A stretch of DNA of 57,892 nt from Minisyncoccota bacterium (GCA_022842585.1 JALHPI010000002.1:1-57892); one strand, 5' to 3'. Positions 8,676 to 52,357 are shown, counted from the first letter of the stretch. Made by a program: numbers and translations. The notes: generated by a model from the letters alone, not told the origin.

Positions 8676-10540
8676 GGTGCGACAACGCCGTTACTACTCT
8701 GATAAGCCGGGTCCGTTTTAAGTTCCGTATCTATGGAAGGGGCCGTAGCATCCACCTGCTTCTGCACGAATCGGTCGAAGCCCGAGATGATGCCGTCGGA
8801 TACCAGTGTTGGACTTGTACCCTTTTGCGAAACGCTTGGCAAGAGTGCGATTTGGAACGCAGCTTCGCGTGATGCTCCAGGCTGCACGTCTCCCAAGTTC
8901 CAGGTCACTTCGCGTGTCGCTTCGTTATACGTTACGCCTCCCTGCGTATTGCCCTGCCCGGTAAAGCGCACATAGGACGGAAGTTTCATCTTCGCCGCAG
9001 TGTTCGCGACCGTGTTCACCGTGTTCCCTGCCGTAAGCAGAACCGTGTACGTCGTCTCCTGGTCGGCAATGGCAGGCCATGGCCCGGTGTTAGTAAACGG
9101 GCCGGTGGTGCGCACGGCGCGCATAGTAAGCGAAAGGTCACTCTGTATTTTTATCGTACGGGTAAGGGTCGAGGATACCGACTCCGGAACGTTGTTTTGT
9201 CCGACGCGGCGACCCGATACCGATACGGAGAGCGCAATGGACGGATTGCGGAGCTGGTTCATGGCGGAACCGGTTTTACTCACGAGCGTGAACGAGCCAT
9301 TCCCCGTATCACCCGACTTAAGGGACCCAAGGCCTGCGACCGTATCGCGGTCGTAACGAATCGTCTTATCAGAAGAGCGGTAGAACCCGTTCGTCACGTC
9401 CACACTCCCCGCATCAAGCGCGTCGCCTGAGAGCTGCACCGATATAGCACCGTCTTGAATCGCAACCGGGAGCGCGTTCGTCCAGGTAAGAAGACCTGCA
9501 ATGGGTTCGCCCGCACGCGCAACTATGCTCGGTGCGTCATCACGGTTCAATCCGAGCGCCACCGTGAAGAACGGTTTCGCAATCGTTACGGTCGTATCGT
9601 TAGCAGTATAGGAAATACCGAAATCCTTCGAAGAGGTGGACTTGAGCGCGCCTGCAGTAAAGCGGAATACGCGTTCTTCTCCGTCTTGTCCGGACAGCGT
9701 TCCGGTTACGCGTATTTCGCGCTCTTCTCCCGGCGCGAGCGTGCCTATCGGAAATAACGGACCCCCTGCGGACGCAGCCGAAAACCCGAACGGATACTCG
9801 GCACGTACCGCGACATTCTCAAGAGACGCGGATGCGTTCGAGCGGACGAGTACCGAGAGCGTAACGGGCTGGCCTGACGCGACTTCGGAAAGCGCGGTAA
9901 CCGTGAGCCCGACCGGTGAGGTGGATATGGTGAATTCGTACTGCGCTTTTTTAACGAACACGGCATTCGAGTTTCCGGTACGATATTCGACCGTAATGGG
10001 TATCGAGATTTTCTGGTTCTCTTTTCCGAAGAACGCTGCGCGGGCCGTTTTTCGCACAGAACCGCCTGCCGGGAGATCATCGAGCGCTTCAGTGTAGTGT
10101 GTGAGTGCCTTCGAAGTATCGTCCGCTTCGGTCGTGCCATCTGGATACTGGAGCGTGAGCGACACGTTCGTCACCGCAACCGGATTTGCGTTCTTTACGG
10201 TCACCAGAAGCGGTATCCCTTCCCCGCCAGCAACCGTCGTAGGGCCTTCAATTGAGATATCCACGTTGTCGGTTGAGACCGAACGGCCTCCGAGGAAGAG
10301 TACGAACGCGGTCACTCCTCCCGCAATGACGAAGAATGTAGCGGCGACGCCGAGGAAAATAGCAGCTCCTGACACCTTAGGTTTCGGAGGCGCAGGCGGC
10401 GGGGGTGCCTTCCAGTGCTCAGCAGTGTCTTTACGCATAGAAGAAAATCCCGACTCGTGCAGAGCAGGTACTGCCGCATTCGCATAGAGCTTCTTTTGGA
10501 GCGTATCGAGCGGGCTGTCGTTTGGTTCCGGCAAAGGCAT
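8672..10540 (-). CDS. Membrane-anchored hypothetical protein with repeated beta-rich (CARDB/DUF11-like) modules
   Basis: 622 aa. Pro-rich linker then one TM (AAIFLGVAATFFVIAGGVTAFVLFLGG), then Thr/Val/Ser-rich repeats. ATGA overlap with glyQS start. Confidence 0.7.
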   Translation of the reverse strand: MPLPEPNDSPLDTLQKKLYANAAVPALHESGFSSMRKDTAEHWKAPPPPAPPKPKVSGAAIFLGVAATFFVIAGGVTAFVLFLGGRSVSTDNVDISIEGPTTVAGGEGIPLLVTVKNANPVAVTNVSLTLQYPDGTTEADDTSKALTHYTEALDDLPAGGSVRKTARAAFFGKENQKISIPITVEYRTGNSNAVFVKKAQYEFTISTSPVGLTVTALSEVASGQPVTLSVLVRSNASASLENVAVRAEYPFGFSAASAGGPLFPIGTLAPGEEREIRVTGTLSGQDGEERVFRFTAGALKSTSSKDFGISYTANDTTVTIAKPFFTVALGLNRDDAPSIVARAGEPIAGLLTWTNALPVAIQDGAISVQLSGDALDAGSVDVTNGFYRSSDKTIRYDRDTVAGLGSLKSGDTGNGSFTLVSKTGSAMNQLRNPSIALSVSVSGRRVGQNNVPESVSSTLTRTIKIQSDLSLTMRAVRTTGPFTNTGPWPAIADQETTYTVLLTAGNTVNTVANTAAKMKLPSYVRFTGQGNTQGGVTYNEATREVTWNLGDVQPGASREAAFQIALLPSVSQKGTSPTLVSDGIISGFDRFVQKQVDATAPSIDTELKTDPAYQSSNGVVAP

Positions 10541-10565
10541 AGTGATACATAGTATACCGCGCGGA

Positions 10566-10692
10566 CTAGAACCGTTTAAAAATGTTCAGATGCGAGGCGC
10601 GGGAGGATGAGGAACGCAGATGTACCGTTTGTACGGCGAAGTGACGAATCGGGTCCCGCAACGAAGCAGGTGGAATTTTTAAACGGTTCTAG
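10566..10692 (+). repeat. Family B structured repeat, copy 1
   Basis: 18-bp perfect closing inverted repeat CTAGAACCGTTTAAAAAT/ATTTTTAAACGGTTCTAG. Core motifs shared with 23088-23207, 51634-51752 and (inverted) 50374-50543. Confidence 0.8.
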
Positions 10693-11255
10693 AGACCGGA
10701 GGCATCGATGCCGCGATTCACACGCATAATGTAGGTACGTCGGTTTTCGATAATGGGCGCAAGCACTTCGTTAGTGTATTCATGCTCTTCGCCTGCGATA
10801 TCCCCCGCATCAAGTCCAAGCGCACGCAAAAGCCTGAGCGCCGCAAGACACTCGGCCGCTTCCGCCTCGGCTTCGGTGAGCGAAGGCAGGACTTCGAGAA
10901 ATCCTCTGAAAATATGAAACGGTGCCCCGTCGTTTGACTCCCCATGCATGAGACGGAGTAGGAGACGCGCGATACGTCCGGCACGACTACGAGCAGAGGG
11001 CGCAAGCGTACTGAACCAATTTTTCCCGAGCACGGCACCCGATAGGCGCCATCCGTCTTTTCCGCGCACGAGTATGGTGTCGCACTCGTACAGGGTCTGT
11101 ACTGCAGGAGCAAGCTTAGCGCCCGGCTTGCGCACGCCTTGCGCACGCGCTTTCACGAGACCGAATTCGTGGGTCAAAAGATAGAGCAATGCGCTTGCTT
11201 CTGCCAAGGGGGACCTCGCAAGGACAATGGCTTCGGCTGAATACCTAGGACGCAT
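10689..11255 (-). CDS. recO: DNA repair protein RecO
   Basis: 188 aa, N-terminal OB region ([21 protein letters not shown]...[12 protein letters not shown]) typical of RecO. Its stop TAG lies inside the terminal CTAG of repeat B1. Confidence 0.85.
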
Positions 11256-21145: not shown

Positions 21146-21643
21146 ATGCACCGTATATCTGCCATTGCTGCTATAGGGAAAAATACTCGCGTCCTCGGCA
21201 AGGACAATGACTTGGTATTCAAGATTCCAGAAGACTTGAAGCGTTTCCGCACGCTCACGAAAGGCCATCCCGTCATTATGGGACGAAAGACCTGGGAGTC
21301 GCTCCCTGAAGTCGCGCGCCCGCTCCCAAATCGAGCGAACTTCATCGTGACGCGCCAAGCCTCATATGTAGCGGAAGGCGCTACCGTCTCCCCCACCATT
21401 GAAGCGGCGATTGAGAGCGCAAAGAATGCGGATGGCTCTGACGAGATATTCATCATTGGTGGCGGCGAGTTGTATGCGCTCGCGCTCCCGTTTGTGGACC
21501 GCCTCTATCTCACGCTTGTGGACGCTGATGCTACGGGTGATGTGCATTTCCCCGAGTATCCGGAGTTCACGAAGGTAATTGAAAACGAAAAACACATCGA
21601 GCACGCTCCTCCATTTGAATACGTGACCCTCGAACGTCCATAA
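21146..21643 (+). CDS. folA: Dihydrofolate reductase
   Basis: Internal ATG MHRISAIAAIGKN... VIMGRKTWESLP and IIGGGELY motifs. Confidence 0.9.
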   Translation: MHRISAIAAIGKNTRVLGKDNDLVFKIPEDLKRFRTLTKGHPVIMGRKTWESLPEVARPLPNRANFIVTRQASYVAEGATVSPTIEAAIESAKNADGSDEIFIIGGGELYALALPFVDRLYLTLVDADATGDVHFPEYPEFTKVIENEKHIEHAPPFEYVTLERP

Positions 21644-21646
21644 CAC

Positions 21647-21670
21647 AAAACCCCGCTTTCGCGGGGTTTT
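21647..21670. terminator. Bidirectional intrinsic terminator (folA / rplK convergent)
   Basis: AAAACCCCGC-TTTC-GCGGGGTTTT. Confidence 0.85.
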
Positions 21671-21698
21671 GTTTTTACGACGGTATGGTCGTTATTTT

Positions 21699-21782
21699 GC
21701 CTGATTTTTGCGGAGAGAGCCCGCGCAAAAACCATGCATAAGTGTCCACTAAAAACTCGTACCGAGTTTTTAGTTCCCCTTA
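21699..21782 (-). repeat. Family A structured repeat, copy 2 (84 nt, overlaps last codons and stop of rplK)
   Basis: See 2978-3061. Hairpin ACTAAAAACTCG-TAC-CGAGTTTTTAGT replaces GTCCTTTTGTAC-TTC-GTACAAAAGGAC at the same position. Confidence 0.8.
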
Positions 21783-22973: not shown

Positions 22974-23052
22974 AGGGGGAGTATTTTAAAACGCCCCTTC
23001 GGGCGCTTACAAGGACAAGCATACCAGAAAGAGAGGTTTCGTCAAACCAAAC

Positions 23053-23080
23053 AAAATATGGCCCAATTGGGCCATATTTT
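23053..23080. terminator. Palindromic bidirectional terminator
   Basis: AAAATATGGCCCAATTGGGCCATATTTT. Confidence 0.7.
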
Positions 23081-23087
23081 GTAAGAA

Positions 23088-23207
23088 GCGCGTTCAAAAA
23101 TCTCTCAGATGCGAGGCGCGAGCGAGGACCGGTTCGAGCCGTACAAGACGTACGGTGAGAACTGGGCCGAAGCAAGCAACAAAGCAGGTGAGGATTTTGG
23201 TAGCGCG
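23088..23207 (+). repeat. Family B structured repeat, copy 2
   Basis: GATGCGAGGCGCG, CCGTAC-AAGAC-GTACGG hairpin, GCAACAAAGCAGGTG. Closing helix CGCG..CAAAATC/GATTTTG..CGCG. Confidence 0.75.
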
Positions 23208-23208
23208 A

Positions 23209-24015
23209 TTAGCGAATTTCGTAGGTGATCATCACCGTCACATTCGTCTCATGTTCCCCTGTCGGGAGTGATGGACGTGCGGGAGCGCTCATTTCGTTTG
23301 CCATCATGCCGCCTTTCGCGTACATGTCGTACATTGGGTAGTACCCTTGGTTTTCCGAGAAGGAAACCACCTTTCCAAGACTCACTCCGAGCTGGGCCGC
23401 AAGTGCCTTCGCTTTTGCTTTCGCGTTGTCGATGGCTTCCTTGCGCGCGTCGTTGCGGATGGCATCATCCTCGTCCACGGTGAAGTTCGGACCGGAGATG
23501 TTCTGAACGTTCAGAGTGCCAAGCGCCTGAAGCACGTCTCCAGCCTTGCCCGTTTCGCGGACTTTTACCTCAACCGTCTGAGACACTTGGTAGCCGATAA
23601 TCTTCGGGTTCTGGGAAGCCGGACACACGCCGCCGTAGCACGGCTGCGGGTACTCGTATTCAGGCGATACGTTGTACGCGATAGTCTTCACGTCTTTCTT
23701 TTCGACGCCGAGCCCATCAATTGCCGCAAGCGCCGCATCGGTCTTTTCCGTAGCTTTCTTTTGAGCATCGGCGACGGTGACTGCTTTTTCAGTGACGGAA
23801 AAATCAATCGTCGCGATGTTTGGAATGGTCGCTGCCTTGCCAGTGCCTTCGACCGTAATGGTGTTCATGTACGGGTTCTCGGAACGGCCGAGGTTACCGA
23901 AAGCGTTAATGGTAAGGGCGAGCAGGAAAAGAGCGAGTACGCCAAGCGCTGCGGTGGCCGCAAAGCGGACTGACTTGGTCGCCTTCACAAAGGTATCTCC
24001 AAAAGATTCGTTCAT
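23209..24015 (-). CDS. SIMPL/DUF541-family periplasmic protein
   Basis: 268 aa, N-terminal TM/signal, typical SIMPL two-lobed pattern (ITVEGTGKA...VTVMITYEI). Confidence 0.75.
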   Translation of the reverse strand: MNESFGDTFVKATKSVRFAATAALGVLALFLLALTINAFGNLGRSENPYMNTITVEGTGKAATIPNIATIDFSVTEKAVTVADAQKKATEKTDAALAAIDGLGVEKKDVKTIAYNVSPEYEYPQPCYGGVCPASQNPKIIGYQVSQTVEVKVRETGKAGDVLQALGTLNVQNISGPNFTVDEDDAIRNDARKEAIDNAKAKAKALAAQLGVSLGKVVSFSENQGYYPMYDMYAKGGMMANEMSAPARPSLPTGEHETNVTVMITYEIR

Positions 24016-27925: not shown

Positions 27926-27952
27926 GACGGCAGTATACCCCGTTATAAAAGC

Positions 27953-27982
27953 AAAAACCGCCACCGTACGGTGGCGGTTTTT
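27953..27982. terminator. Intrinsic terminator after mscL
   Basis: AAAAACCGCCACCGTACGGTGGCGGTTTTT. Confidence 0.85.
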
Positions 27983-27998
27983 GTACCCTAAGAAAGGG

Positions 27999-29323: not shown

Positions 29324-29454
29324 TGGTGCCCAGGAGGGCTCGACCAAGAACATTTCTGCTCGCCGTCGCTCACAGAAATTTCTCGGCCCTGCTCACGCTA
29401 CCGGTTCTGCTGAACCGCTCTACGCGCCCGCTTTCGAGTCCTCTCCTGGTGCCA
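29324..29454 (-). repeat. Family C tRNA-linked structured element (tRNA-Leu(GAG) copy, divergent)
   Basis: Minus strand: TGGCACCAGGAGAGGACTCGAA (17 nt = reverse complement of the tRNA T-loop/T-stem/acceptor), AGCGGGCGCG, GAGCGG-TTC-AGCA-GAA-CCGGTAGCGTG, variable hairpin, then TCGAGCCCTCCTGGGCACCA. Confidence 0.7.
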
Positions 29455-29458
29455 CAAA

Positions 29459-29490
29459 AAAGAAAGCCGACGCTCCCGCGTCGGACATTC
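29459..29490 (-). terminator. Hairpin + T-run directly after tRNA-Leu(GAG)
   Basis: Minus strand CCGACGC-GGGA-GCGTCGG followed by CTTTCTTTTTTG. Confidence 0.7.
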
Positions 29491-29500
29491 TTTTTATGTG

Positions 29501-29582
29501 TGCCCAGGAGAGGACTCGAACCTCCACGCCTTTCGGCACTACCACCTCAAGGTAGCTTGTATACCAATTTCAACACCTGGGC
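29501..29582 (-). tRNA. tRNA-Leu(GAG), no encoded CCA
   Basis: Acceptor GCCCAGG/CCTGGGC, anticodon loop TTGAGGT, long variable arm, T-arm GGAGG-TTCGAGT-CCTCT. Confidence 0.9.
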
Positions 29583-33023: not shown

Positions 33024-33096
33024 GGGCGCTTAGCTCAGTTGGTAGAGCATCCCGTTTACACCGGGCAGGTCAGAGGTTCGAGTCCTCTAGCGCCCA
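33024..33096 (+). tRNA. tRNA-Val(TAC), no encoded CCA
   Basis: Acceptor GGGCGCT/AGCGCCC, D-arm GCTC-AGTTGGTA-GAGC, anticodon loop TTTACAC, T-arm AGAGG-TTCGAGT-CCTCT. Confidence 0.9.
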
Positions 33097-33103
33097 CAAA
33101 GAC

Positions 33104-33136
33104 GAAAATCCTAGCGTAAGCTAGGATTTTCGCTTT
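33104..33136 (+). terminator. Hairpin + T-run directly after tRNA-Val
   Basis: GAAAATCCTAGC-GTAA-GCTAGGATTTTC followed by GCTTTT. Confidence 0.7.
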
Positions 33137-33263
33137 TGGGCGCTAAGCAAAGCGTGGGGCGCTTTGCGTGAGCTGCGGAGCAGAAAAGTCGCAGGCGGGT
33201 AGCCGAGACGGGGTCGCAGAATTTTCCAGCAAGAAAATATCTGTGACCGGGCCCTAGCGCCCA
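33137..33263 (+). repeat. Family C tRNA-linked structured element (tRNA-Val copy)
   Basis: TGGGCGCTA (reverse complement of the acceptor 3' strand) ... GAGACGGGG, GGTCGCAGA-ATTTTCC-AGCA-AGAAAAT-A-TCTGTGACC ... CTAGCGCCCA (direct copy). Confidence 0.8.
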
Positions 33264-39960: not shown

Positions 39961-40035
39961 GCTCTCGTCGTTCAATGGATAGGACGCTAGCTTGCGGAGC
40001 TGGTAATATAGGTTCGATTCCTATCGAGAGCACCA
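39961..40035 (+). tRNA. tRNA-Arg(GCG), CCA encoded
   Basis: Acceptor GCTCTCG/CGAGAGC, anticodon loop TTGCGGA, T-arm ATAGG-TTCGATT-CCTAT, ACCA. Confidence 0.88.
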
Positions 40036-40040
40036 AAGAC

Positions 40041-40076
40041 AGAAACACTCGCCCAAGGCGAGTGTTCTGCTTTTCT
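40041..40076 (+). terminator. Hairpin + T-run directly after tRNA-Arg(GCG)
   Basis: AGAAACACTCGCC-CAA-GGCGAGTGTTCT followed by GCTTTTCT. Confidence 0.65.
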
Positions 40077-40221
40077 GCTCTCGAGCACGCCTGGGAGGCG
40101 TGCATATAGGAATCGAAAGTCGGAGGCCTGTCGAGGCCGAGACGGGGTCGCGGAATTTTCCAGCAGGAAAATATCCGTGACCGATGCGTGCCTCATTCTT
40201 ATGAGGACACTTCCTATCGAG
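40077..40221 (+). repeat. Family C tRNA-linked structured element (tRNA-Arg(GCG) copy)
   Basis: GCTCTCGA[hairpin]...TAGGAATCGAA = reverse complement of the tRNA 3' end. Core GAGACGGGGTCGCGGAATTTTCCAGCAGGAAAATATCCGTGACCGATGCGTG. Ends in TTCCTATCGAG (direct copy). Confidence 0.85.
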
Positions 40222-40243: not shown

Positions 40244-40318
40244 GCTCCCATCGTTCAATGGATAGGACACTTCCCTCCGAAGGAAGAAATGCTGGTTCGA
40301 CTCCAGCTGGAAGCACCA
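40244..40318 (+). tRNA. tRNA-Arg(CCG), CCA encoded
   Basis: Acceptor GCTCCCA/TGGAAGC (one C-A mismatch), anticodon loop CTCCGAA, T-arm GCTGG-TTCGACT-CCAGC, ACCA. Confidence 0.85.
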
Positions 40319-40343: not shown

Positions 40344-40474
40344 GCTTCTGGCTGGAGTCGAAAGCCGGAAGCGCGTCGGCGCTGAGGCGGGGTCGAGGAA
40401 TTTTCCAGCAGGAAAATATCCGTGACCGATGCGTGCCTGCGGTCTTCGCAGGACACCTCCAGCTGGAAGCACCA
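40344..40474 (+). repeat. Family C tRNA-linked structured element (tRNA-Arg(CCG) copy)
   Basis: GCTTCTGGCTGGAGTCGAA (near reverse complement of the tRNA 3' end) ... same core ... CTCCAGCTGGAAGCACCA (exact 18-nt copy including CCA). Confidence 0.85.
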
Positions 40475-49544: not shown

Positions 49545-50191
49545 ATGCAGAAGTATATACTTCGCCAGAATCACCAGTAGTAGTGTTTGAACGTTTCTTT
49601 GAGAAACCAGTCGTAAAAATTTCTTGGGAGGAACTGCCCGTGGTAGTGCAGGAATATTTCGAGGTTCGAAGTAAGCTTCGAGTCTACCCAGACGACTGGA
49701 AACCGCGCAATTATCTTTCTCTTTGGAGAATTGATATGGGAGGGAACGATACTCTATATGCCGGGGAACAAAAAAAAGACACTGTCTTTGATGGAGTATT
49801 GGAAGGCAGAGAGCATTTGATTCATTGTATACGTTTTCAGGGCGACACTCGTGTCGCTGACTCCACCATAGAGAAGCTACTTGTATATAAAGACCAGAGG
49901 ACAAAAGAAATCATTCGGAATGAGGACCCCTTCCCTTTCACTGATTTCATCGGGGTTGAGCGTGATTTCCAGCGTAAAGGTCTGGCGCATGAGCAATTAC
50001 GGGCTATGAACGCGCTTTCTCATATGATTTTTAATCAACCGTTGCACAGCTCCACCTATCAGACACCAAGTGGGGAGGCAATGACAAAAAGTGCGGTTGA
50101 AAAAGGGCTGGCAATATCGTCAAAAAAATATCCTGAGCGGTTTGTCTACATAACAACCGCAACTGGGGTCGATCCTGCTACAGGTGATTAA
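49541..50191 (+). CDS. Hypothetical protein, weak GNAT-like motif
   Basis: ATGA overlap with pilB. GVERDFQRKGLAHEQLRAM resembles acetyl-CoA motif A. Lower GC. Confidence 0.45.
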   Translation: MNAEVYTSPESPVVVFERFFEKPVVKISWEELPVVVQEYFEVRSKLRVYPDDWKPRNYLSLWRIDMGGNDTLYAGEQKKDTVFDGVLEGREHLIHCIRFQGDTRVADSTIEKLLVYKDQRTKEIIRNEDPFPFTDFIGVERDFQRKGLAHEQLRAMNALSHMIFNQPLHSSTYQTPSGEAMTKSAVEKGLAISSKKYPERFVYITTATGVDPATGD

Positions 50192-50192
50192 A

Positions 50193-50220
50193 GAAAAAGC
50201 ACCCTCTCGGGTGCTTTTTC
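50193..50220 (+). terminator. Intrinsic terminator
   Basis: GAAAAAGCACCC-TCTC-GGGTGCTTTTTC. Confidence 0.85.
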
Positions 50221-50373
50221 TTAGTCTTTCGTACACACAACCCTCCAGGCCGAACAACACGCCTGAGGAGTCGACCAGCGCTCCACTCCGGAGAGTGGTA
50301 CCAGTACGGTCCTTGGGGAGTCGCCCTTAGCCGTCAAGCCTTGCCTAGAGGGTTCTATGCGCGAAAGGAACTG

Positions 50374-50543
50374 GGAACCTATCCTGAAAATAACCGCAGA
50401 AGCTTGGCCGCTACGACAGTTGTTGTCTGGCTGCGACAGGCAACGGCTCGTCTTCGTCGTATTTCAATACGTCTCAGACTCCGCCGGCCTGTCTCGCTCA
50501 CACCACAACTGCCTCGCAGGCCATTATTTTCAGGATAGGTTCC
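50374..50543 (-). repeat. Family B structured repeat, enlarged copy in inverted orientation
   Basis: 20-bp perfect inverted repeat GGAACCTATCCTGAAAATAA / TTATTTTCAGGATAGGTTCC enclosing 130 nt. The minus strand carries CTGCGAGGC and GACGTAT-TGAA-ATACGACGAAG motifs of family B. Confidence 0.65.
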
Positions 50544-50582
50544 TTCTGCAAACAAAAACGAGCCCTTCGCTCGTGTGGTAGA

Positions 50583-51608
50583 ATGCTAGCATACCCTGTA
50601 TTTATGTCAACCCCCACCCCAGAACCTAAGGATAAGGCCGTCGCTCCGGACTTAGCGCTCGACTCGACGCTCCGGCCGAACATCTGGGACGAATACGTAG
50701 GCCAAGGACACGTAAAAGCGAATGTCCGCGTAGCACTTGATGCCGCAAAGAAGCGCGGAGACATGCCCGAGCACATCCTTTTCTATGGTCCGCCTGGTGT
50801 GGGCAAGACCACGCTCGCCCACCTGGTCGCCCTCACGCTTGATGCGCCACTGAAGACGACGTCGGGTGTGGCTATCGAGCGTGCAGGCGACCTCGCCGCC
50901 ATACTCACGAACCTTGAGCCGGGCTCTGTCCTCTTTATAGATGAAATCCATAGGCTTGGTACGAAGATAGAGGAACTCCTCTACCCCGCGCTTGAAAACG
51001 GCTCGCTCGATATCATTCTTGGTAAAGGCCCGTCGGCCCGCACCGTCGAGCTCTCGCTCCCCCGCTTCACACTCGTGGGCGCTACGACACGCGTCGCGCA
51101 GATTTCAGGTCCGCTCCGCTCACGCTTTGGCGGCGGCACCTACCAGCTCGACTTCTACTCAGACGAAGACTTGCGCGCCATCATCGCGCGAAGCGCGCGT
51201 GTGCTTGGCCTCACGGTCCCGCCGTCCGTGGTCGCCATGCTCGCAGGAAGAAGCCGCGCCACCCCGCGCGTTGCAAACGCACTCCTGAAGCGCGTACGCG
51301 ACTACTCCGAAGTGCATGAGGTAGAGATGAATGAGGAGGCCTGTAACAAAGCCTGCGAGCTCTTCGGCATAGACGCGCTTGGCCTTACGAAAGACGACCG
51401 TCGCTACCTTGAGACGCTTGAGACGGGATTCAAGGGCGGGCCTGCCGGTATCCGCGCCCTCGCCTCCGCACTTCACGAAGACCCGGACACAGTGGAGAAC
51501 GTATACGAGCCCTACCTCATGCGCCTTGGATTCATCGAGCGGGGTCCGCGCGGTCGCGTGCTTACGGAAAAAGGTTCCTCGTATCTGCGAAACGGCGTTT
51601 CGTTCTAA
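50583..51608 (+). CDS. ruvB: Holliday junction DNA helicase RuvB
   Basis: LRPNIWDEYVGQ, Walker A GPPGVGKTT, Walker B LFIDEIHR. Alternative ATG at 50604. Confidence 0.95.
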   Translation: MLAYPVFMSTPTPEPKDKAVAPDLALDSTLRPNIWDEYVGQGHVKANVRVALDAAKKRGDMPEHILFYGPPGVGKTTLAHLVALTLDAPLKTTSGVAIERAGDLAAILTNLEPGSVLFIDEIHRLGTKIEELLYPALENGSLDIILGKGPSARTVELSLPRFTLVGATTRVAQISGPLRSRFGGGTYQLDFYSDEDLRAIIARSARVLGLTVPPSVVAMLAGRSRATPRVANALLKRVRDYSEVHEVEMNEEACNKACELFGIDALGLTKDDRRYLETLETGFKGGPAGIRALASALHEDPDTVENVYEPYLMRLGFIERGPRGRVLTEKGSSYLRNGVSF

Positions 51609-51633
51609 TACATAGAAAGTTTTATTAAGTGAC

Positions 51634-51752
51634 GGCCGAGCTATAAGGTTTATGTGCAAGGCGCGGAGCTAAGATTTTCGGAGACGTATTGAACATACGG
51701 CGGAGAAAATCGAGAGGCTCCGTAACGCAGCAGATAAGCCTTATAGGCGGCC
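51634..51752 (+). repeat. Family B structured repeat, copy 3
   Basis: Nested stems GGCCG/CGGCC, CTATAAGG/CCTTATAG, CGGAGC/GCTCCG, GATTTTC/GAAAATC, CGTAT/ATACG, plus motifs GTGCAAGGCGCG and TAACGCAGCAG. Confidence 0.8.
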
Positions 51753-51778
51753 TCGTAGAATTTCGATACAATGCGCAT

Positions 51779-52357
51779 ATGGCGGGACACAGTAAATGGG
51801 CTCAGATAAAGCGCGGAAAGGCGGTTACGGACGCCGCGAAAAGCCGCGCATTCTCCAAGTTCGCCCGTGAAATAACCATGGAGTCTAAGAAGGCTGCGGG
51901 AAACGTCGCCTCCCCTACTCTCGCCTCCGTCATCACGCGTGCAAAGGCCGCAAACATGCCCAAAGAAAACATTGAGCGCGCCGTCGCGAAAGGCATCTCC
52001 AAAGATTCAGGCGACCTCGAGCAGGTCGCGTATGAATTCTACGGACCAGGCGGCGTAGCACTCATCGCGCTTGCGGTGACCGATAGCAGGAACCGCTCGA
52101 CGCAGGAGATAAAAGTATTGCTCGGCAAAAAGGACTGCGAGCTTGGCACTCCGGGAAGTGCTGCGTGGGCGTTTACCAAGCTTCCTGACGGCCGTTTCAA
52201 GGCGAACGAACCGCTGATGGATATTGCGGGAGAAGACGAGGAGAAACTTTCCGACCTCCTTACGCATCTTGATGAACTCGATGATGTGCAAGAGGTGGTC
52301 ACAAACGCACGCGGATACGAAACGACCGCAGACGACGGAGATTCCTCCACGCACTAA
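51779..52357 (+). CDS. yebC: YebC/PmpR-family transcriptional regulator
   Basis: Internal ATG MAGHSKWAQIKRGKAVTDAAKS signature. Confidence 0.93.
   Translation: MAGHSKWAQIKRGKAVTDAAKSRAFSKFAREITMESKKAAGNVASPTLASVITRAKAANMPKENIERAVAKGISKDSGDLEQVAYEFYGPGGVALIALAVTDSRNRSTQEIKVLLGKKDCELGTPGSAAWAFTKLPDGRFKANEPLMDIAGEDEEKLSDLLTHLDELDDVQEVVTNARGYETTADDGDSSTH

Follow-up and report, generated by a model that had tools for sequence, protein, structure and literature searches.

A large family of folded hairpin repeats with a conserved internal core, frequently placed at stop codons in Patescibacteria and other bacterial phyla

A 57,892-nucleotide stretch of DNA (the window), which belongs to a Patescibacteria MAG from drinking water, carries three complete copies and one divergent relative of a hairpin element whose core recurs across bacterial phyla. 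The four loci belong to a large uncatalogued family. The probability is put at about even that these elements are long-lived, non-autonomous hairpin repeats of a REPIN/MITE-like kind, recognised by their structure. The deeply conserved part is internal and not at the tips, and the outer helix is shared within lineages only.

Coordinates of the window copies and their parts are given in Table 1. Four hairpins had been located in the original prediction, and all four were present where it had put them. They had been described as rod-like, which was borne out by z-scores against dinucleotide shuffles of -6.6, -6.8 and -9.2 for the RNA folds of copies 1–3 and of -11.0 for copy 4. The perfect closing helix of copy 1, also described earlier, and a 20-bp perfect outer helix of copy 4 were recovered independently with a repeat finder. 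The closing helices were said to be unrelated in sequence; within the window this is true, as all four differ. The assignment of four copies to one family held for copies 1–3, with copy 4 becoming a divergent relative. Its basal module is partial (UGCGAGGC / CGUAGCGG), and its apical hairpin matches that of copy 3 at ~20/24 positions. Among the proposed shared motifs, TACGRYGRRR was found in 4/4 copies. GCRAGGCG, supposed to be common to all, extends to an exact TGCRAGGCGCG in copies 1–3 and is replaced by GCGAGGCA in copy 4, while AACGMAGCAG, listed for three copies, is exact in only two, copy 2 reading AACAAAGCAG.

Copies 1, 2 and 4 are antisense to the neighbouring genes and copy 3 is sense. 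Copy 1 lies inside an apparent operon, flanked by recO (product a RecO_N protein) and a DUF11-domain gene, both on the minus strand; the end of its hairpin overlaps the recO stop, as had been noted. Copy 2 sits between a SIMPL/DUF541 gene (minus strand; TAA stop at 23209-23211) and the terminator of that gene. Copy 3 lies between ruvB and yebC, and the gene end nearest to copy 4 is 180 nt away.

Table 1. Positions of the hairpin elements, their parts and adjoining features in the window
Feature	Position	Strand	Remarks
Copy 1, complete hairpin element	10566-10692	+	18-bp perfect outer helix
Copy 1, covariance model match	10576-10686	+	78.3 bits, E 2e-19
Copy 1 basal module, 5' half, CAGATGCGAGGCGCG	10587-10601	+	Conserved columns in family alignments
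Copy 1 apical hairpin, GTAC-CGTTT-GTAC	10622-10634	+	Model helix 4, 93% paired family-wide
Copy 1 basal module, 3' half, GCAACGAAGCAGGTG	10658-10672	+	Direct sequence reading
recO TAG stop	10689-10691	-	Within final 4 nt of copy 1 hairpin
Copy 2, complete element	23088-23207	+	Covariance model 66.8 bits, E 3e-16
Host bidirectional terminator palindrome	23051-23082	.	Directly 5' of copy 2; outside element
Copy 3, complete element, variant CAUGUGCAAGGCGCG / GUAACGCAGCAGAUA	51634-51752	+	Covariance model 51.7 bits, E 4e-12
Copy 4, 170-nt divergent expanded relative	50374-50543	-	Covariance model 14.5 bits, E 0.07

An exact-pattern scan of 185,579 species genomes was made using ATGCGAGGCGCG, a gap of 55-80 nt and AGCAGGTG. 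At least 118 loci matched this pattern, of which at least 82 were true members and the remainder chance matches in GC-rich coding DNA. The members span at least six phylum-level groups, often with several copies per 8 kb, and are carried by Desulfocapsa, Desulfopila and other Desulfobacterota, Binatia, ‘delta proteobacterium’ soil MAGs, Syntrophobacteraceae, Eisenbacteria, Planctomycetia, Sporomusa, another Bacillota MAG and several Patescibacteria. A cultured carrier is Desulfopila aestuarii DSM 18488, with a copy at L087:3347-3458. One match to the family pattern was on a viral contig (L290:10854-10938, from IMG/VR). A covariance model (R1) was built on relatives from other genomes and then scored on the window copies; its alignment was hand-anchored and padded with N, and MAFFT alone misaligned the stems. 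R1 located 102 copies in the member loci, ~20 of them outside the selection made by the search pattern. Matches were almost absent in 840 kb around ileS of 80 other Patescibacteria, so the element is sporadic in that phylum.

The element is an imperfect palindrome of ~125-135 nt that enters intergenic DNA as a unit. The same rod was seen in every member, with conserved segment lengths. Outermost is helix P1a (8-12 bp, lineage-specific), followed inward by an A-tract/T-tract helix ending YUCA/UGRR, a 2x2 loop (GA/GG), P2 (UGC/GCA) and an asymmetric loop (GAGGC vs AACGAA). The fixed asymmetric basal module reads CAGAUGCGAGGCGCG / GCAACGAAGCAGGUG. Variable stems of tight length (19-21 nt on the 5' side and 20-22 nt on the 3' side) lead to the rod tip, a hairpin of GGCGUAC, a loop of 4 to 8 nt and GUACGYC, and then G. 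Both the basal internal-loop module and the apical GGCGUAC...GUACGYC hairpin are fixed across phyla. The loops are GA-rich, and a tandem sheared G-A may lie beside P2.

No match was obtained with Rfam 15 at gathering score on the elements, and at E<=10 no family matched on 10500-10760 or 50300-51800; the earlier statement that the class was not recognised therefore stands. DNA similarity was absent from PLSDB plasmids, GenBank phages and 5,426 E. coli genomes, and among these last, which carry ERIC, REP and BIME, no match to a known REP/BIME-type family was seen. The literature, searched by sequence motif (only chance primer matches) and by topic, did not yield the family. To the extent of these resources (Rfam, PLSDB, GenBank phages, E. 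coli genomes and literature) the family appears to be undescribed. Ribozymes and group II intron domain V were considered and rejected: the hammerhead-like and domain-V-like resemblances lack Rfam support and are not conserved, the self-cleaving hammerhead, hairpin and twister ribozymes gave no Rfam match at E<=10, and a ribozyme-like CUGAGGA...CGAA occurs in one subfamily and is not kept family-wide. A peptide gene was likewise rejected, as the conserved ATG opens ORFs that differ in length and frame between copies (e.g. MRGAGG and a stop in copy 1). The family-wide motif GAAGCAGGUGR (window 10663-10673) is one mismatch from a perfect extended Shine-Dalgarno sequence, AAGGAGGUGA, and its complement may be said to resemble the 16S rRNA 3' tail, probably by coincidence.

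Covariation, for which a wider covariance model search had been proposed, was strong on 55 model-aligned copies from many phyla. Both sides change in 24/27 modelled pairs, and 88% of cells pair, compared with 31-45% when the partner is slid; the observed pairing value was reached by 0/500 shuffles. In the hand-anchored alignment 87% of cells pair (32-44% slid) and 18/27 pairs change on both sides. P2 is otherwise invariant, but copies found independently of the search pattern supplied clean compensatory changes in it (G-C to C-G or U-A) as well as in P3 (G-C to A-U). A G.G mismatch is also switched to U-A (CAGAUGC..GCAGGUG vs CAUAUGC..GCAGAUG).

Mismatches between the two arms are not symmetric. 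A wobble-neutral alignment of the arms contained 266 G.T and 119 A.C mismatches, with 319 purine-purine and 16 pyrimidine-pyrimidine; the modelled pairs contained 129 G.T and 28 A.C, in an alignment that leans towards the model. This excess of G.T over A.C (2.2:1 to 4.6:1) indicates that one strand is the constrained one. The ATGCGAGG strand is more stable than its complement by 9-16 kcal/mol as RNA in all copies, and by 3-8 kcal/mol with DNA parameters, and G-U is conserved at two positions of the apical stem. We read these data as selection on the ATGCGAGG strand for the rod fold, the stems varying by compensatory and wobble substitutions. By our reasoning, C-to-T biases of the kind commonly linked to transcription and replication would affect the opposite strand, and the asymmetry was for this reason attributed to selection. 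The earlier suggestion of selection on an RNA or ssDNA fold is thus supported by the covarying pairs, the shuffles and the strand-specific constraint. Compensatory change in a DNA palindrome can also come from template switching between the arms without selection on the fold.

Placement relative to genes was counted in 84 distinct loci using convergent ORFs of at least 70 aa. Such an ORF ends within 60 nt of the 3' side of the element in 54/84 loci, and in 31/84 its stop codon falls 16-22 nt past GGTG, precisely where the outer helix ends; a stop codon occupies the mirrored position on the 5' side in 1/84. Copies 1 (recO TAG) and 2 (SIMPL-family TAA) in the window obey this placement. It was missed in the original prediction, which held orientation to be independent of the flanking genes, and these counts contradict that claim. 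In roughly half of the loci one end of the element is followed, on the folded strand, by CTAN, which reads NTAG on the opposite strand; the base before this tag is G in 7 loci, and TGA or TAA occurs in others.

The flanking genes share no common function, and no protein recurs beside the element except abundant ABC substrate-binding paralogues of Binatia. Five Binatia-type copies (L012, L020, L045, L067 and L076) lie directly after NMT1/SsuA-like genes of this kind, which recalls the REP after malE in E. coli and may merely reflect paralogue abundance. Copies were present in metatranscriptome assemblies, transcribed inside longer RNAs on contigs that carry no strand information; these contigs run through the element into diverse flanks and do not end there.

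Several traits are those of mobile DNA. Copies within a Desulfocapsa or Binatia genome are almost the same, down to their outer helices, with the shared ends GATGGC...GCCATC in Desulfocapsa and CAGGCTG...CAGCCTG in Binatia-type copies; the window copies share none. The Desulfocapsa form has an extra left unit and 6-7-bp direct repeats (AACCGTT, AAGATTT, AATAGTG and others), the repeats accompanying ~6/11 composite copies. At two Desulfocapsa loci the reconstructed empty site would, by our own reading, put the original TAA exactly at the junction. TA is found on both sides of ~7/12 Patescibacteria copies, including window copies 1–3, and no target duplication was seen in Binatia-type or Desulfobacterota subfamily-B copies. 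Deletion derivatives and apex-swap variants exist, and unpaired half-elements are truncations or apex swaps.

Relatives of the window organism supplied empty sites. A sister MAG whose recO protein is 94% identical has no element after recO, where 15 nt of unrelated spacer were found (L124). In more distant relatives the copy 2 site consists of the stop codon, ~20 nt and a plain terminator, the element being absent. The ruvB-yebC gap, which in the window holds copy 3 (51609-51778), is 2 nt in some relatives. Empty alleles were not found in the source metagenomes, nor was polymorphism in the source population. The original prediction took variable termini as an argument against a MITE. That argument does not survive the conserved outer helices of Desulfocapsa and Binatia, the Desulfocapsa duplications, the derivatives and the absence of copy 1 in the sister MAG, from which it follows that the element behaves as mobile DNA of the REPIN/MITE kind. 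In 620 kb around the 102 copies there was no transposase gene or full-length element with these ends. Two Y1-transposase/RAYT-like ORFs (L069 and L081) lie in these 620 kb, 3-5 kb from an element; they are not flanked by it and have their own unrelated inverted repeats of 22-37 bp instead. An origin of the outer helix by inverted duplication of the target flank was considered, prompted by CTAGAACC, which is shared with the empty site of the sister MAG, and was rejected as unsupported elsewhere, since outer helices are common to dispersed copies.

Other observations were made at these loci. The ruvB-yebC junction holds unrelated inserts elsewhere: an unannotated 150-aa minus-strand ORF in one relative and a 720-nt insert with an 86-aa ORF in another (loci compared: L291:2020-2500, L294:1168-1889 and L292:2499-2500). 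In an Eisenbacteria MAG a complete copy is followed by a tandem array of the 3' half of the element with a period of ~81 nt (L017:2150-2359). The two flanks are perfect reverse complements over at least 40 nt in four Desulfocapsa TAG_MAG_00006 contigs (L003, L011, L037 and L058), which appear to be palindrome-seeded foldback misassemblies. Behind each of three tRNA genes of the window (Leu-GAG, Arg-CCG and Arg-GCG) the 3' end of that gene is repeated in inverted form (29433-29461 / 29492-29520; 40296-40314 / 40344-40362; 40024-40038 / 40070-40084), which forms a hairpin with the T-arm and acceptor end. In contigs of 3/4 drinking-water metagenome runs, 152 nt of the window (21631-21782) are replaced by 60 other letters.

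Once installed, the element can persist at an orthologous site through speciation. The sister MAG carries it at the exact site of copy 2 (L282), with identical flanks and identical segment lengths of 26/15/55/15/24 nt. Identity between the two is 93% and 87% in the core halves, 65% and 79% in the outer arms and 60% in the variable domain, and P3 shows a G-C to A-U double change. The orthologue is without the distal TA. Both fold equally well (41 and 48 bp; about -56 and -58 kcal/mol for aligned 135-nt segments), whereas identity at four-fold degenerate sites in the adjacent gene is just 52%. It follows that the fold was kept through near-saturating neutral divergence, either by selection or by template switching between the arms. 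Independent re-insertion at this site was rejected, since orthology with compensatory drift is simpler given the identical segment lengths and the divergence of the adjacent gene.

Known families of small repeats were compared. Correia/NEMIS of Neisseria, ERIC/IRU of enterobacteria and RUP/BOX of pneumococcus are, like the present element, imperfect palindromes of 100-170 bp in transcribed intergenic DNA. These MITEs, which form long RNA hairpins, have terminal inverted repeats and, in some families, TA-type targets; they are co-transcribed with neighbouring genes, whose mRNA stability or termination they influence. Each of them is limited to one genus or family and is conserved at its tips, whereas the present element spans phyla and is conserved in its interior; its orientation-specific placement at stop codons is a further difference. 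The element fits a classical MITE poorly: its tips are the least conserved part, its orientation to stops is one-sided and its duplications are inconsistent.

The element resembles REP/REPIN sequences, which are mobilised by RAYT (IS200/IS605-type HUH tyrosine transposases), in being a multicopy extragenic hairpin found mostly downstream of ORFs, in that one of its ends often provides the TAG stop of a gene or lies against it, and in that it can nest in palindromes. Published REPs are likewise situated downstream of ORFs, with TAG stops provided by their ends (PMC3733652). REP/REPIN sequences are reported to be recognised as folded single-stranded DNA on one strand, and to be long-lived and vertically inherited (PMC3733652; PMC3116915; 10.1101/2021.07.10.451892), a likeness that would extend to the present element. 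A REPIN consists of two inverted REPs of 20-40 bp, each with its own palindrome; the present element, in contrast, is one continuous rod of ~60 bp whose arms lack palindromes or internal hairpins of their own and which contains an asymmetric internal module. Nor is a GTAG tag fixed in it, the flank being NTAG, TGA or TAA, and no RAYT lies beside any copy in the 620 kb. REP families are lineage-specific, while the element core is common across phyla. The single rod, the lack of a fixed GTAG tag and the lack of a nearby RAYT set the element apart from REP/REPIN sequences. As it fits neither these nor a classical MITE well, it was filed as a hairpin-repeat variant recognised by its fold and its conserved unpaired bases.

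Two other accounts of the family were each considered improbable. By one, the elements are structured ncRNA genes or cis-antisense RNAs read from the ATGCGAGG strand, with DNA copies spreading secondarily; their conserved purine-rich loops and apical hairpin would serve as binding sites for a factor common to all hosts, such as the ribosome, RNase III or RNA polymerase, and overlap with the 3' end of a convergent gene would give antisense control. Such an RNA, on which we place a low probability, would account for the strand-specific constraint, with G-U tolerated, A-C avoided and two apical G-U conserved, for the GA-rich loops and possible sheared G-A, for a core conserved across phyla (unusual for transposon interiors), for the fold retained at the copy 2 site and for the copies in metatranscriptome assemblies. 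However, no conserved promoter was seen inside or upstream of the element, and the bidirectional terminator directly upstream of copy 2 blocks sense-strand transcription into that copy. Genomes with dozens of almost identical copies, target duplications and deletion derivatives point to mobile DNA, the neighbouring genes have no common theme, Rfam is without a match, and the metatranscriptome contigs continue through the element. The other account, an ordinary DDE-transposase MITE (IS630/Tc1-mariner or IS5/IS427 type) inserting at TA or CTAG, is similarly unlikely. Its outer helix would be the terminal inverted repeats, the target contained in TAG or TAA would explain stop placement, and the interior would be inherited baggage. 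TA at both ends of window copies 1–3, L024, L028 and L063 is consistent with it, copy 1 lying in C-TA-G, as are the frequent CTAG or CTA at the 3' flank of Binatia-type copies, the ends conserved within a genome and the Desulfocapsa direct repeats; the ends CAGGCTG.../CAGTCTG... also have what we take to be a resemblance to Tc1/mariner termini. Against this, the Desulfocapsa duplications are of 6-7 bp and not TA, the 5' side of Binatia-type copies has neither TA nor another duplication, and the copy 2 orthologue lacks the distal TA. Symmetric cut-and-paste should insert either way, yet the stop abuts one end in 31 cases and the other in 1. Tips less conserved than the interior are the reverse of known MITEs, the G.T/A.C asymmetry is unexpected for double-stranded recognition, and neither a transposase gene nor a full-length element was found in the 620 kb.

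Host intrinsic terminators, or terminators with a large loop insertion in which the closing helices are native and only the core is foreign, were given very little weight. Like the base of the rod, bidirectional intrinsic terminators combine an A-tract with a GC-rich closing stem and a T-tract, and like the element they lie right after stops. Those of the host are long near-perfect palindromes that pair through and past their A/T tracts (2918-2962, 27952-27983, 23051-23082, 1766-1796, 21635-21682 and 33092-33143), and they give weak partial matches to the outer part of R1; its A-tract/GC stem/T-tract matches those at 27951-27987, 50189-50221, 23053-23083 and 1767-1798. Pairing past the A/T tracts is one difference between the element and bidirectional intrinsic terminators, and terminators of this genome show it too. 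In the element, however, the ‘loop’ is a conserved structured domain of 90 nt, and the element is dispersed as a repeat and absent from orthologous sites. The empty copy 1 site had no prior hairpin, the copy 2 site in relatives has a separate terminator that is still intact beside the element in the window, the same outer helices recur among dispersed copies within the genomes of Desulfocapsa and Binatia, and copy 1 lies inside an apparent operon. Given the empty sites, the terminator account is already largely refuted for copies 1 and 2, and insertion of the core into the loop of a host terminator was rejected on the same ground. Least credible of all is that these are attC-like sites, at which an integron-type tyrosine recombinase would act on a folded single strand behind a gene cassette. 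Like attC, the element begins at the stop codon of the gene upstream or overlaps it, its best-folding strand is the complement of the coding strand (the template strand), and structure is more conserved than sequence in its variable stems. Unlike attC, it has lineage-specific ends without R''/R' boxes (RYYYAAC/GTTRRRY), and its strongly conserved central sequence is the opposite of attC. Its copies are scattered by housekeeping genes (recO, ruvB/yebC and the nusG neighbourhood) and not in arrays; there is no integrase nearby, and no recombinase recurs near the copies.

For the hairpin repeats recognised by structure, the following mechanism is proposed. The machinery would recognise a folded single strand and its conserved unpaired bases, in contrast to classical transposons, where the terminal sequence is recognised. 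As the form recognised, ssDNA is likelier than RNA, since the strand under constraint mostly runs antisense to the neighbouring gene and copy 2 stands directly behind a terminator. A structure-specific enzyme acting in trans, such as a HUH/RAYT-like transposase or another recombinase, would act during mobilisation or maintenance. On the mRNA strand the element would be transcribed in the 3' UTR of the upstream gene or in an intercistronic spacer, where its base of A-tract, stem and U-tract may act as a long terminator-like, mRNA-protecting hairpin. Such a role is plausible, and it would make insertion at that place tolerable or mildly useful.

Most of what is known of small hairpin repeats such as REP, REPIN, ERIC and Correia comes from a few cultured Proteobacteria, each family having a narrow range. 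Here one sequence core was found across Patescibacteria, Desulfobacterota, Binatia, Planctomycetia and Bacillota, with a fold conserved on one strand only and precise placement at stop codons in a fixed orientation. In practice, the element is a recurrent source of foldback misassemblies in MAGs, of spurious ORFs and of ORF extensions at gene ends. A bolder proposal, which we consider doubtful, is that it is either a pan-bacterial mobile or self-maintaining folded-single-strand element, installed in fixed orientation at stop codons by a structure-specific mechanism and long kept by selection, or a novel structured RNA of universal occurrence, antisense or at 3' ends, with a core machine of the host as its binding partner. 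If the element is RNA, it would represent a widespread unannotated structured RNA. If it is mobilised by recognition of structure, the REPIN-type lifestyle would reach far beyond its known range, and the family would point to a mobilising enzyme.
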